A stretch of DNA of 64,000 nt from the NCBI RefSeq assembly GCF_044647545.1, contig NZ_CP172818.1. One strand, written 5' to 3'. Position numbers and translations under genes: made by a program. Under the pieces are notes generated by a model, which was not told the origin of the DNA, did not search any database, and saw nothing but the letters and a program-made list of their open reading frames with translations. Every line of letters starts with the position of its first letter. Positions within the stretch are counted from its first letter, which is position 1. The stretch comes from Escherichia coli (GTDB taxonomy: Bacteria; Pseudomonadota; Gammaproteobacteria; Enterobacterales; Enterobacteriaceae). Positions 42,509 to 46,385 of this stretch are shown piece after piece.

Positions 42509-42817
42509 TTAAGGAGGGTATGGGGGATTACCAAAGGCAGCCCCTTTAAGCTCCGCAAGACGTTCTGACCAGTCATGCGCCAGCGCGTTGTCTTCCGCCG
42601 TGTAATACGCAGCACATTTGGCGTTATCACCGTCAGTGAACAGATCCAGAACAAACGGGCCAAACAGGGTGTTAATTCCCCAGAAAATGTTGTCCGGCGT
42701 GCGCCACTGATCACCCACTTCCTTCAGTTCATGGGCTGGTTTGTTCCGCAGTTCCACCAACTCCTGGCAATATTTATTACTCATTAAGCCCCCACGTAAT
42801 TCCCTGACAGATACCAC
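42509..42817 (-). pseudogene. Phage DNA N6-adenine methyltransferase-like fragment (yfdM-like)
   Basis: 102-aa ORF ending ...GNPPYPP* right after the NPPY motif and abutting the truncated tRNA. Confidence 0.5.
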
Positions 42818-43278
42818 TCATCACCCGATACAGCGCGCTTGCTGCTTTTCCGTAAACACTGCTCACGACGCGCCAGAAAATTGTTTCGTTCTGGCTGGGA
42901 GTGGCTTTCACGGAATGCCGCCATCCACACCGTTGCAGCACGACGGTATAAGCCCCTGGACTCCAGTTCTTCCGCCTGGCGGGTCAGGCACAAAATCACC
43001 CGGGGATCGTTAGTGCCGACATAGAAATTGCGCACAGGTCTGGTTTCACGAACTGGTTGTGGTTCCGGCTCCTGCGCTCTCTCAGTCAGGCGTGGGAAAT
43101 GTCTGCGTGTATCTCCTTCACAACGGTGAGCCACACGCCCACTCTGACGTAACTTGCTTGCTGACTGCAGAACGCGCTGCCGTGAGTAACCTGCAAAAGC
43201 ATCCGCAATGTCTCCGGAAGTACACCCCGGATGGGCTTCAATGAATTTCTGAACGTCATTTAACAGACTCATGATCAC
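42784..43278 (-). CDS. yfdN: Prophage PerC-family transcriptional regulator-like protein
   Basis: 164-aa ORF with PerC-like motif (ELESRGLYRRAATVWMAAF). Confidence 0.6.
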   Translation of the reverse strand: MIMSLLNDVQKFIEAHPGCTSGDIADAFAGYSRQRVLQSASKLRQSGRVAHRCEGDTRRHFPRLTERAQEPEPQPVRETRPVRNFYVGTNDPRVILCLTRQAEELESRGLYRRAATVWMAAFRESHSQPERNNFLARREQCLRKSSKRAVSGDEWYLSGNYVGA

Positions 43279-43640
43279 CCCCTGAATCCTGCCGGGATCT
43301 GGCTGTAGTCCACGTTGTCGTAACTGGATTTGAAGTACGGGTCTTCGCGTTTTTCGGTGTACGTGCTTACGGACGGCGATAAGCGCAGGGAAAGCTCATC
43401 CCATTTTTCCCGCAGCTTCGACGGGCTGAGCACGTTACGGCACCAGAACGGATCGCGGCTGACGCGGCTGTACATCTCGCAGATTTGTTTGTGAGTACGA
43501 CCATCCTGCACACACATCAGGCGAATTTCGTTTGCCCAGGCTGTCCAGTTCGGTTCTTTGGGACGAACCACCTCGCCGTCACATTCGGCGGCTTGCTCGT
43601 ACAGGGCGATGATTTTTTTCCAGAGCCACTGTGCGCAGGT
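43275..43640 (-). CDS. yfdO: Prophage replication-protein-like fragment
   Basis: C-terminal ~122 codons of a 292-aa read-through ORF whose 5' part overlaps yfdP on the opposite strand; start uncertain. Confidence 0.45.
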   Translation of the reverse strand, partial: TCAQWLWKKIIALYEQAAECDGEVVRPKEPNWTAWANEIRLMCVQDGRTHKQICEMYSRVSRDPFWCRNVLSPSKLREKWDELSLRLSPSVSTYTEKREDPYFKSSYDNVDYSQIPAGFRG

Positions 43641-43964
43641 CAAATCATCCTGCGTTCCCCACTGGCGCTTTTTAGGGCTGAATACAACCGCATCAGGATG
43701 GCGAGTTAAAAACTCCTGTTCAGCCGTTTGCGTGTCCGGTTGCGAAGCGTCCGGACGAGAAGAGGTTTTATTCTCTGCGCTTTTGATTTTACGACGTCCG
43801 GACTTCACGGTAAACCCGTTGTTTCCCCCACAATGACCTGACGGGCAGATTTGATGCGCAGATTTTGACGGGTCTGAGTGTGACGGTTGAGAAAAGGAGG
43901 CTGCCGGGAGCTTCCAACGTTTTGCGGAGAAACATCGGCCTGCAATATGATGAGGAGCAGCAAA

Positions 43965-44327
43965 ATGGCTAGCGAACGCAGTACTGATGTGCAGGCATTT
44001 ATTGGGGAGCTGGACGGCGGCGTATTTGAAACCAAAATCGGCGCAGTTCTCAGTGAAGTCGCTTCCGGTGTGATGAACACGAAAACCAAAGGTAAGGTCT
44101 CGCTCAACCTGGAAATCGAACCATTTGATGAGAACCGTGTGAAAATCAAACACAAACTCTCATATGTTCGCCCGACTAACCGCGGGAAAATTTCCGAAGA
44201 AGACACCACCGAAACGCCGATGTATGTCAATCGCGGTGGTCGCCTGACTATTCTGCAGGAAGACCAGGGACAATTACTGACTCTTGCCGGTGAACCTGAC
44301 GGAAAACTCCGCGCAGCAGGTCGTTAA
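43965..44327 (+). CDS. yfdP: Prophage protein of unknown function
   Basis: 120 aa from ATG 43965 (MASERSTDVQ) with GGAG RBS. Confidence 0.6.
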   Translation: MASERSTDVQAFIGELDGGVFETKIGAVLSEVASGVMNTKTKGKVSLNLEIEPFDENRVKIKHKLSYVRPTNRGKISEEDTTETPMYVNRGGRLTILQEDQGQLLTLAGEPDGKLRAAGR

Positions 44328-44392
44328 TATCGCTTTTAATAAACTGATTATTTATCTCATCACTGAATATCTTTATATAGTGAGGACTTATT

Positions 44393-45217
44393 ATGTCTCA
44401 GAACTTAGACGCAACCGCAATTAATCAAATCCATGCCCTTATTTCTGCTCAGGGTGTTAATGAAATTATCAATAATATTGGTGCCGATGCTGTGGCATTG
44501 CCTGAGAATTTCCGCATTCATGATCTGGAAAAATTTAATTTAAATCGCTTCCGTTTCCGTGGTGCACTTTCCACTGCCAGCATCGATGACTTTACCCGTT
44601 ATTCTAAAGATCTTGCAGATGAAGGCACCCGCTGCTTTATCGATGCCGATAATATGCGAGCAGTCAGTGTGCTTAACCTGGGTACTATTGATGAACCAGG
44701 TCACGCAGATAACACCGCCACTCTCAAACTGAAAAAGACAGCACCGTTCTCTGCTCTGTTGTCTGTTAATGGCGAGCGTAACTCCCAGAAGTCACTGGCA
44801 GAATGGATTGAAGACTGGGCCGACTACCTTGTGGGCTTTGATGCTAATGGTGACGCCATTCAGGCAACCAAAGCGGCTGCGGCGATCCGTAAAATCACAA
44901 TTGAAGCGAACCAGACCGCTGATTTTGAAGACAATGACTTCAGCGGCAAACGCTCCCTGATGGAGTCTGTCGAAGCGAAGACCAAAGACATTATGCCAGT
45001 GGCATTTGAATTTAAATGCGTTCCGTTTGAAGGTCTGAAAGAACGTCCGTTTAAATTACGCCTCAGCATTATCACTGGCGATCGTCCTGTACTGGTTCTG
45101 CGCATTATTCAGCTGGAGGCGGTGCAGGAAGAAATGGCTAACGAATTTCGTGATCTGCTTGTTGAGAAATTCAAGGACAGCAAAGTAGAAACCTTTATTG
45201 GTACTTTCACCGCCTGA
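44393..45217 (+). CDS. yfdQ: Prophage protein of unknown function (DUF2303-like)
   Basis: 274-aa ORF with GAGGA RBS. Confidence 0.65.
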
Positions 45218-45229
45218 TTTCATTACTGC

Positions 45230-45252
45230 AAATGCCCCTGCGGGGGCATTTA
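45230..45252 (+). terminator. Hairpin ATGCCCC-tgcg-GGGGCAT followed by TT, downstream of yfdQ
   Basis: GC-rich 7-bp stem immediately after the yfdQ stop. Confidence 0.45.
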
Positions 45253-45344
45253 TGGAAACGTAATTTACTCAATAATCGCCGGATGGTGAGGGATTCTTTT
45301 TACCAGAATTCAGCGCGGTGCAGCGCATATACGTGGAGAACAAA

Positions 45345-45881
45345 ATGTCATTTATCAAAACTTTTTCTGGGAAGCATTTTTATTATGACAGGATAAATAA
45401 AGACGACATCGATATTAACGATATCGCGGTTTCCCTTTCAAATATCTGTCGCTTTGCCGGTCATCTTTCGCACTTCTACAGCGTCGCCCAACATGCGGTT
45501 CTTTGCAGCCAGTTGGTGCCGCAGGAATTTGCTTTTGAAGCGTTAATGCATGATGCAACAGAAGCGTATTGCCAGGACATTCCCGCACCACTGAAACGCC
45601 TTCTTCCTGACTATAAACAAATGGAAGAAAAAATAGACGCCGTAATCCGTGAGAAATACGGGTTACCCCCAGTTATGAGTACGCCCGTGAAATATGCCGA
45701 TCTCATCATGCTGGCAACCGAACGCCGCGATCTCGGGCTTGATGATGGCTCTTTCTGGCCTGTACTGGAAGGTATCCCGGCAACAGAGATGTTCAACGTG
45801 ATTCCACTGGCTCCAGGCCATGCCTACGGGATGTTTATGGAACGCTTTAACGAATTATCGGAGTTACGAAAATGCGCATGA
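45345..45881 (+). CDS. yfdR: HD-domain phosphohydrolase (5'-deoxynucleotidase-like)
   Basis: 178 aa from ATG 45345 with GGAG RBS; H…HD metal-binding motifs (GHLSHFYSVAQH, LMHDATEAY). Confidence 0.65.
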   Translation: MSFIKTFSGKHFYYDRINKDDIDINDIAVSLSNICRFAGHLSHFYSVAQHAVLCSQLVPQEFAFEALMHDATEAYCQDIPAPLKRLLPDYKQMEEKIDAVIREKYGLPPVMSTPVKYADLIMLATERRDLGLDDGSFWPVLEGIPATEMFNVIPLAPGHAYGMFMERFNELSELRKCA

Positions 45882-46234
45882 ATGTTTTCGAAATGGAAGG
45901 ATTTCTTCGCGGGAAATGTGTACCGCGAGATCTGAAAGTGAATGAAACGGATGCTGAATACCTGGTGCGTAAATTTGATGCGCTTGAAGCTAAATGTGCA
46001 GCACTGGAAAACAAAGTAATACCAGTGTCAGCTGAACTGCCGCCAGCGAATGAAAGTGTTCTGTTATTTGATGCTAATGGAGAAGGCTGGCTGATTGGCT
46101 GGCGTTCTCTCTGGTATACATGGGGGCAAAAAGAAACCGGAGAATGGCAGTGGACATTTCAGGTCGGGGACCTTGAAAACGTCAACATCACTCACTGGGC
46201 AGTAATGCCAAAAGCACCGGAGGCTGGAGCATAA
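45872..46234 (+). CDS. yfdS: Prophage protein of unknown function
   Basis: 120-aa ORF overlapping the yfdR 3' end by 10 bp, with GGAG RBS. Confidence 0.6.
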   Translation: MRMNVFEMEGFLRGKCVPRDLKVNETDAEYLVRKFDALEAKCAALENKVIPVSAELPPANESVLLFDANGEGWLIGWRSLWYTWGQKETGEWQWTFQVGDLENVNITHWAVMPKAPEAGA

Positions 46235-46235
46235 T

Positions 46236-46385
46236 GACCACTTTACCGATAAAGAACTGATTAAAGAAATCAAAGAGCGAATCAGCAGCATGGACGTGCG
46301 AGACAATGTTGAGCGCCGTGCTTATGAAATTGCTCGCACCGCTGCAGGGGACACCATCCTTGTGTTTATCCCTAAAACCACATAA
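46236..46385 (+). pseudogene. Short phage-derived ORF fragment (ypdJ-like)
   Basis: 49-codon open frame lacking a start codon (…DKELIKEIKERISSMDVRDNVERRAYEIARTAAGDTILVFIPKTT*). Confidence 0.35.

Follow-up and report, generated by a model that had tools for sequence, protein, structure and literature searches.

A stretch of 64,000 nucleotides (nt) of Escherichia coli DNA (contig NZ_CP172818.1; hereafter, the window) carries an insert of 3843 bp at positions 42499-46341, between yfdC (41451-42383) and dsdC (46456-47397), in which several apparently intact open reading frames (ORFs) sit within an otherwise decayed prophage. The question raised by this locus is whether such retention reveals a benefit to the host. 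A preliminary description took it to suggest selection for a host function, possibly nucleotide-pool manipulation or phage interference, and considered that function to be undescribed. The insert is very likely a doubly truncated, SfV-like lambdoid prophage of the CPS-53/KpLE1 family, lodged in argW, and the sequence comparisons given below indicate that the intactness of its five ORFs is uninformative on host selection, because they have had no time to decay since sharing their sequence with a phage that possessed a complete early region.

Identity and gene content of the insert

In a blastn comparison with E. coli K-12 MG1655, positions 42516-46333 proved 94.7% identical to the part of CPS-53/KpLE1 that runs from yfdM' to yfdT; the alignment is continuous across the junction left by an internal deletion of the immunity region, and the order yfdM'-yfdN-yfdO'/yfdP-Q-R-S-T is the same. 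The flanks align to both K-12 and E. coli ST648 (NZ_CP008697.1), and the two parts of argW are present on either side, which places the insertion in this transfer RNA (tRNA) gene between yfdC and dsdC. Phage-derived sequence spans 42518-46335 within the insert. The limits first proposed, 42509-46385, were displaced, and the segment 46342-46385 consists of the argW 3' end and the spacer preceding dsdC. No integrase, excisionase or structural gene was found in the insert, in keeping with the initial view of a remnant stripped of its integration and structural functions; neither the gtr genes nor any of the late genes remain.

The gene order matches that of SfV, SfIV, phiSTEC1575-Stx2k, PhiR63_1 and PhiR40_1. 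In these working phages, one strand carries the genes for Dam, PerC and O, which follow cro, and the other encodes YfdP-Q-R-S-T, downstream of cI and directed towards xis and int; the two arms are separated by cI, cro, ymfL, rha and the full O gene. In the remnant, 3.5 kb have been deleted between the arms, comprising cI, cro, ymfL, rha, the N-terminal part of O and the early promoters. On this synteny, the region consists of two divergent stubs, one of the rightward early operon of the phage (Dam', YfdN and O'; minus strand) and one of the leftward early operon (YfdP to YfdT'; plus strand). The small operon originally envisaged, combining a PerC regulator with HD-domain and DUF proteins, thus does not exist as such, as YfdN is encoded by the minus strand, within the rightward-operon stub. 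The features are as follows (aa, amino acids).

42459-42498, plus strand: 5' part of argW (tRNA-Arg, CCU), 40 nt to the anticodon loop; identical to positions 10675-10714 of the ST648 locus (L004) and to K-12 argW
42499-42517, no strand: filler of 19 nt, CTATTGTCGATTAAGGAGG, a partial inverted repeat of the argW anticodon stem
42518-42784, minus strand: yfdM', dead; the 89 N-terminal codons of a gene for a phage Dam (N6-adenine) methyltransferase (TIGR01712, PHROG 111; 100% to L009)
42784-43278, minus strand: yfdN, intact, 164 aa, C-terminal PerC domain, homologue of SfV orf40 (PF06069, PHROG 1324; 100% nucleotide identity to L009)
43275-43777, minus strand: yfdO', C-terminal portion, being the last 500 bp of a gene for a lambda-O-like replication initiator (PHROG 391; 100% to the 330-aa O of L009)
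43778-43944, minus strand: old core, comprising the eroded origin (iteron) portion of an O gene of K-12 type and the deletion junction to the leftward early operon; K-12 yfdO' and O of the ATCC 11775 prophage are the only sequences that align
43965-44327, plus strand: yfdP, intact, 120 aa, PF27127 (PHROG 204; PF27127 recorded on homologues)
44393-45217, plus strand: yfdQ, intact, 274 aa, DUF2303 (PF10065)
45345-45881, plus strand: yfdR, intact, 178 aa, HD-domain 5'-deoxynucleotidase-type phosphohydrolase (PHROG 318; PDB 2gz4)
45872-46234, plus strand: yfdS, intact, 120 aa, DUF551 C-terminal domain, overlapping yfdR by 10 bp (PF04448, E = 4.9e-4; PHROG 583, E = 1.4e-82)
46234-46335, plus strand: yfdT', dead 5' end of the next early gene; 1-nt deletion at 46241, stop after 8 codons, cut at 46335
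46336-46341, no strand: filler of 6 nt, GCACCG, at the right junction
46342-46356, plus strand: last 15 nt of argW, CTGCAGGGGACACCA, the att core kept at attR; shared exactly with K-12 attR and the ST648 argW 3' end

Five intact ORFs (yfdN, yfdP, yfdQ, yfdR and yfdS) are thereby confirmed on the two strands at the places first assigned to them; the sixth that had been counted, yfdO', is a fragment. It represents the C-terminal two thirds of O (positions 108-298 of 298 in the PHROG 391 profile) and lacks the N-terminal winged-helix origin-binding domain that, together with the C-terminal domain, defines a lambda-O-like initiator, intact homologues being 272-330 aa long. Similarly, yfdM' covers positions 1-70 of 165 of the TIGR01712 profile and is cut directly after the NPPY motif, short of a full catalytic domain; the full-length Dam of intact phages has 217 aa.

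The domain assignments made at the outset hold by Pfam and PHROG: PerC for YfdN (PF06069, E = 1.8e-9, residues 100-153 against model positions 5-58 of 90; PHROG 1324, E = 2e-78), DUF2303 along the full length of the model for YfdQ (PF10065, E = 8.7e-93, model positions 2-269 of 269), DUF551 for YfdS and the HD phosphatase family for YfdR (PHROG 318, E = 2.7e-110; PDB 2gz4, E = 3e-14). In YfdR, the HD dyad is formed by residues 69-70, with further histidines at positions 40, 43 and 50. An assignment of YfdR as an orthologue of YfbR was rejected: its score against NF003009 is 20.5 bits, whereas the curated cut-off is 122 bits, making it a distant relative.

Shine-Dalgarno-like motifs (GGAG/GAGGA) precede each start by 6-10 nt, and the 10-bp overlap of yfdR and yfdS is real; neither this overlap nor the tight spacing is peculiar to the remnant, both being native to intact phages (for example, 7954-8490 and 8481-8843 in L002). 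The gene following yfdS is a mosaic (compare 7842-8651 in L009/L010 with 12755-13060 in L001): the first ~35 codons are common, and beyond these the gene encodes either the 101-aa YfdT, as in K-12 and SfV, or a 269-aa Ea22-like protein, as in other prophages. The window retains only the common 5' part.

Intactness of the reading frames and selection

The window sequence 42518-43777 is exactly that of L009 811-2070, and 43945-46240, which holds yfdP, yfdQ, yfdR and yfdS with their spacers, is contained without a mismatch in each of L008, L009 and L010. Across the shared sequence, the only differences from L009 are at 43925-43944, the internal junction, and at 46241 and 46277, both in the dead yfdT'. 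A total of 540 blocks of public assemblies encode the exact YfdQ protein; in those three of the loci that were examined (L008, L009 and L010), the early region contains cI, cro, full-length O, full-length Dam and RusA. The intact genes of the remnant are, therefore, alleles that circulate in prophages with complete early regions.

Comparison with K-12 might nonetheless be taken to indicate constraint, as the ratio of non-synonymous to synonymous substitution rates (dN/dS) ranges from 0.03 to 0.16 among the intact genes. The truncated Dam' provides an internal control, and it shows the same purifying signal: nine synonymous changes and one nonsynonymous change, giving a dN/dS of 0.028 (binomial P = 1e-5). 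That a non-functional fragment carries this signature implies that the differences arose in functional phage genes and were subsequently imported. The low dN/dS would, in other words, record phage-level selection, brought into the remnant by recombination. The synonymous rate (dS) varies fivefold between neighbouring genes (0.05-0.25), as against 0.06-0.12 in the chromosomal flanks. Moreover, at the informative sites of the right arm, the window agrees with SfV and K-12 with Stx2k in 28 cases, the window with Stx2k and K-12 with SfV in 11, and the window with K-12 against both phages in only 2. Nine indels separate the window from K-12, eight in the iteron part of O' and one in yfdT'; there are none in yfdM', yfdN, yfdP, yfdQ, yfdR or yfdS. 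The step from intact frames to a host benefit, on which the preliminary description had relied, thus fails here. More generally, intact ORFs in a cryptic prophage are no evidence of domestication when their alleles circulate in complete phages, and truncated neighbouring genes can serve to check any apparent purifying selection.

History of the remnant

The centre of the remnant has a different character from its arms. Only two sequences match the segment 43778-43944, namely K-12 yfdO' and an intact O gene in the ATCC 11775 prophage, and eight indels separate it from K-12. The junction between O' and the leftward operon lies somewhere within 43919-43935; those of the window and K-12 are 10-30 nt apart, and both are inside ~45 nt in which O and leftward-operon sequence show ~60% similarity. 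Additionally, the cut points of Dam' in the window and in K-12 are within 5 nt of each other. We favour a history in which there was one old remnant, whose arms would have been overwritten by homologous recombination with circulating phages, over a very recent derivation from such a phage, because the centre is old and rich in indels.

Another possibility, which we regard as unlikely, is that the insert arose by recent deletion from an L009-like prophage integrated at argW in this lineage and shares no descent with CPS-53 of K-12, the likeness of the junctions then being due to deletion hotspots. The identity of both arms to L009-type prophages (99.5-100%) fits such an origin, as do the nucleotide differences between the two O'-yfdP junctions within a partly similar stretch and the empty site (yfdC, intact argW and dsdC) in ST648 NZ_CP008697.1, a closely related genome. 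It is opposed by the centre, 43778-43918, a heavily eroded O iteron segment of K-12 type that is missing from L009, and by the near-identical truncation of Dam' in the two remnants; that two coincident junctions should have arisen independently is improbable.

The K-12-type remnant is present in ~360-370 of 5426 complete E. coli genomes. The window's own junctions, represented by the k-mers CCTCCTAAGGCTATTGTCGATTAAGGAGGGTATGGGGG and GAAATTGCTCGCACCGCTGCAGGGGACACC, were found in none of the 5426, and exact-protein look-ups of the junction-spanning ORFs (91-aa and 102-aa forms of yfdM' and a 292-aa yfdO') returned no match.

Reported activities and the probable role in the phage

The element, its genes and their main activities are already known. 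The yfdQRST cluster, the binding of YfdR to DnaA, the H2O2 phenotypes and the regulation by SrsR have all been published, and the structure of a YfdQ homologue has been solved, contrary to the initial idea of an undescribed function. As YfdQ, YfdR and YfdS show just 3, 4 and 2 residue differences, respectively, to their K-12 counterparts, the published K-12 properties should apply. In the K-12 work, YfdR is an HD-domain phosphohydrolase that acts on deoxynucleoside monophosphates (dNMPs) and binds domain I of DnaA, for which DnaA Phe46 is required, in moderate competition with DiaA and DnaB; when present in multicopy, yfdQRS or yfdQRT inhibits initiation at oriC and increases resistance to hydroxyurea, and deletion of yfdQRST has no initiation or hydroxyurea phenotype (PMC4776307). 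Noguchi and Katayama (2016) suggest an original role in phage growth (PMC4776307).

Based on these K-12 experiments, the most likely role is that of a brake on host replication during lytic growth. The leftward genes would be accessory delayed-early genes of the phage; when over-produced, YfdR with YfdQ and either YfdS or YfdT would block initiation at oriC, freeing DnaB and nucleotides for the phage. The earlier thought of nucleotide-pool manipulation survives in part, in that YfdR belongs to a nucleotide-phosphohydrolase family and effects of the K-12 copy at the level of the host are on record (PMC3105296, PMC9181523).

In K-12, SrsR (YgfI) has its strongest genomic binding site in the yfdO/yfdP spacer, where it occupies four TCAGATTTTGC boxes, and it activates both yfdPQ and yfdONMLK during stationary phase (PMC9181523). 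We find that these boxes correspond to the origin iterons within the O gene, which have a 15-bp spacing in the intact O of ATCC 11775; the strongest SrsR site of K-12 is, therefore, a dead phage origin. In the regions compared (window 43839-43880, L001 10343-10390 and L011 6169-6224), three to four boxes are recognised in K-12 and one in the window, at 43858. A sigma-70 promoter scan gave three sites as against 4.3 expected by chance, and the plus strand, including the region upstream of yfdP, was devoid of sites. With the native early promoters deleted and the SrsR iteron array reduced to one recognisable box, the genes of the remnant are probably expressed weakly, if at all.

Readings that invoke the host

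A number of points weigh against a purely phage-borne explanation of the intact core. The window and K-12 have shed different outer genes, yet share yfdN to yfdS. Every difference between the window and intact prophages is in sequence that is dead or belongs to a junction; two of them fall within the ~100 bp of yfdT', out of ~3.6 kb (P ~ 7e-4 under uniform neutral mutation), a clustering that could reflect purifying selection elsewhere. The overwriting of the arms offers no explanation for the identity of the left arm up to its outer end, where a homology anchor is lacking. Finally, some host-level use of the K-12 copy is possible in view of the H2O2 phenotypes and the activation by SrsR.

These points are in part the grounds for supposing that the host keeps yfdN to yfdS as a domesticated stress module, one that might brake DnaA-dependent initiation and trim dNMP pools under oxidative or replication stress, upon induction by SrsR in stationary phase. 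Deletion of CPS-53, yfdK, yfdO or yfdS in K-12 increases killing by H2O2 (PMC3105296); the yfdO/yfdP spacer is the foremost SrsR target, and yfdPQ responds to it (PMC9181523); multicopy yfdQRS or yfdQRT raises hydroxyurea resistance (PMC4776307); the five ORFs contain none of the nine indels that separate the dead parts of the window from K-12; and the same core has outlasted independent outer deletions. The constraint is, however, not assignable to the host, given alleles 100% identical to the early regions of complete prophages and an equally low dN/dS in the dead Dam'. Moreover, the remnant is absent from the closely related ST648 genome and from ~93% of complete E. coli genomes, loss of yfdQRST is without an initiation or hydroxyurea phenotype (PMC4776307), the SrsR box array is eroded in the window, and yfdT, one of the two alternative partners of yfdQR, is dead. 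Taken together, we consider domestication of this kind unlikely too, and favour phage-level selection as the source of the constraint.

A more elaborate proposal is that YfdP and YfdQ constitute a widespread early pair that forms, with YfdR, a new DnaA-directed brake on host replication, and that in remnants this has been co-opted by the host, via SrsR acting on dead iterons, as a stress-inducible checkpoint; as a whole, this seems to us quite improbable. An anti-phage or superinfection-interference cassette, in which the early genes would hinder related phages by, for example, blocking their use of DnaA and DnaB or depleting dNMPs, was also put forward in the preliminary description and can draw on the action of YfdR on dNMPs and DnaA and on a preprint reporting that production of K-12 YfdQ and YfdM controls the release of phage SW1, but it is highly implausible, as in working phages these genes form part of the lytic early operon of the phage itself, there is neither a sensor/effector architecture nor an evident promoter, and none of the five intact proteins matches a PADLOC family (in PADLOC-DB v2, only the methylase fragment Dam' matched, to methyltransferase models, with a stray hit for YfdN at E = 0.0096 and none for YfdP, YfdQ, YfdR or YfdS).

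The YfdP-YfdQ pair

YfdQ matches PDB entry 9o7m. This 36-chain entry, named 'YfdQ Protein', is a DUF2303 homologue (E = 1.2e-44 over residues 18-273) that is 98.8% identical to a product of Xanthomonas phage MET23-P3; its 36 chains may indicate a large homo-oligomer. A literature search found no paper for 9o7m. In the PDB sequence search, YfdP and YfdS were without a significant match, as was YfdN. The AlphaFold models of YfdP and YfdQ (predicted local distance difference test scores of 90.7 and 83.7) gave no informative fold match in a Foldseek search of PDB entries to 2026-04-08, among which 9o7m was not included.

DUF2303 proteins number 1468 representatives at 50% clustering (E <= 0.001). 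In Xanthomonas phage Olaya, a relative of MET23-P3 (L007, 5526-6780), the gene upstream of the YfdQ homologue encodes a protein 39% identical to YfdP, and adjacency of PF27127 and PF10065, with a 3-nt gap and without YfdR or YfdS, recurs in a distant context (L012-L014). From these arrangements, YfdP and YfdQ are a conserved two-gene phage unit, occurring in phages as different as enterobacterial lambdoid and Xanthomonas phages, to which YfdR and YfdS are variable neighbours. A comparison of lambdoid phages published in 2025 lists yfdP and yfdQ as being without known function and common in early-left operons (PMC12315714). A role for the pair as a recombination module was considered and rejected, because the same comparison finds the cluster in phages whose Rec modules are complete (PMC12315714). 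What YfdP, YfdQ and YfdS do biochemically is a question about a phage gene family and not about this locus.

Junctions and flanking sequence

By comparison with the intact argW of ST648, the middle 20 nt of the gene have been replaced by the insert. No functional argW (tRNA-Arg, anticodon CCU) is encoded at the split locus (42459-42498/46342-46356), the ST648 copy being intact, and ARAGORN detected no tRNA across 38-50 kb of the window. The element lacks what excision would require: intS and torI are absent, attL is destroyed and only the 15-nt core of attR is left. The 19-nt filler has no match in the compared loci or K-12, allowing up to three mismatches. The left junction region (42488-42517) holds TTAAGGAGGG, a near-perfect inverted repeat of the adjacent upstream anticodon-stem sequence of argW, CCCTCCTAA; this might be the scar of a hairpin-mediated repair event.

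Identity of the flanks to ST648 is 99.98% over 34001-39524, 98.8% over 39394-42498 and 100% over 46342-48108. The left flank at 39394-42498 has 29 mismatches to ST648, unlike the near-identical sequence further to the left and the right flank, and it looks like a recombination tract that arrived together with the remnant. Further out, a yfdF-like gene of low GC content (39164-40223; 32-36%) is split into two ORFs by a frameshifting deletion of 188 bp (at 39523); its ST648 counterpart is a single 415-aa coding sequence.

Comparison with known systems

The closest known element is CPS-53/KpLE1 of K-12, which occupies the same argW site between yfdC and dsdC, has the same gene order and the same truncated Dam', and joins O' to yfdP through the same kind of internal deletion. 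The window is the more reduced of the two: on the left, it is without the argW 3' half, intS, yfdGHI (gtr), tfaS, yfdK and yfdL, and on the right, it is without most of yfdT, ypdJ and torI. It further differs in that yfdT is dead, argW is broken, the arms are of different phage alleles and the SrsR/iteron array is eroded.

SfV has the homologous genes (orf40, orf39 and orf32-orf28) in the same order and orientation, with 97.2% nucleotide identity to the window over yfdP-yfdT', and the phages related to it in the early region (SfIV, PhiR63_1, Stx2c and Stx2k) share the 10-bp overlap of yfdR and yfdS. These working phages possess cI, cro, full-length O and Dam, xis, int and the late genes, all of which have been deleted in the remnant. 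The protein of 9o7m derives from a Xanthomonas phage, where its gene follows that of a YfdP homologue as in the window, but without YfdR or YfdS as a neighbour.

With respect to the yfdQ-yfdR-yfdS-yfdT cluster characterized in K-12 (PMC4776307), whose activity there is seen at raised copy number only, the window can offer the yfdQRS combination alone, as yfdT is inactive. In outline, YfdR resembles lambda P and SirA of Bacillus subtilis, each being a small accessory protein that binds the initiator and stops firing of oriC. The resemblance does not extend to sequence or fold; YfdR is an HD-domain phosphohydrolase. Lambda P binds domain III of DnaA, whereas YfdR binds domain I; the contact residue Phe49 in the SirA system corresponds to the DnaA Phe46 that is used by YfdR.

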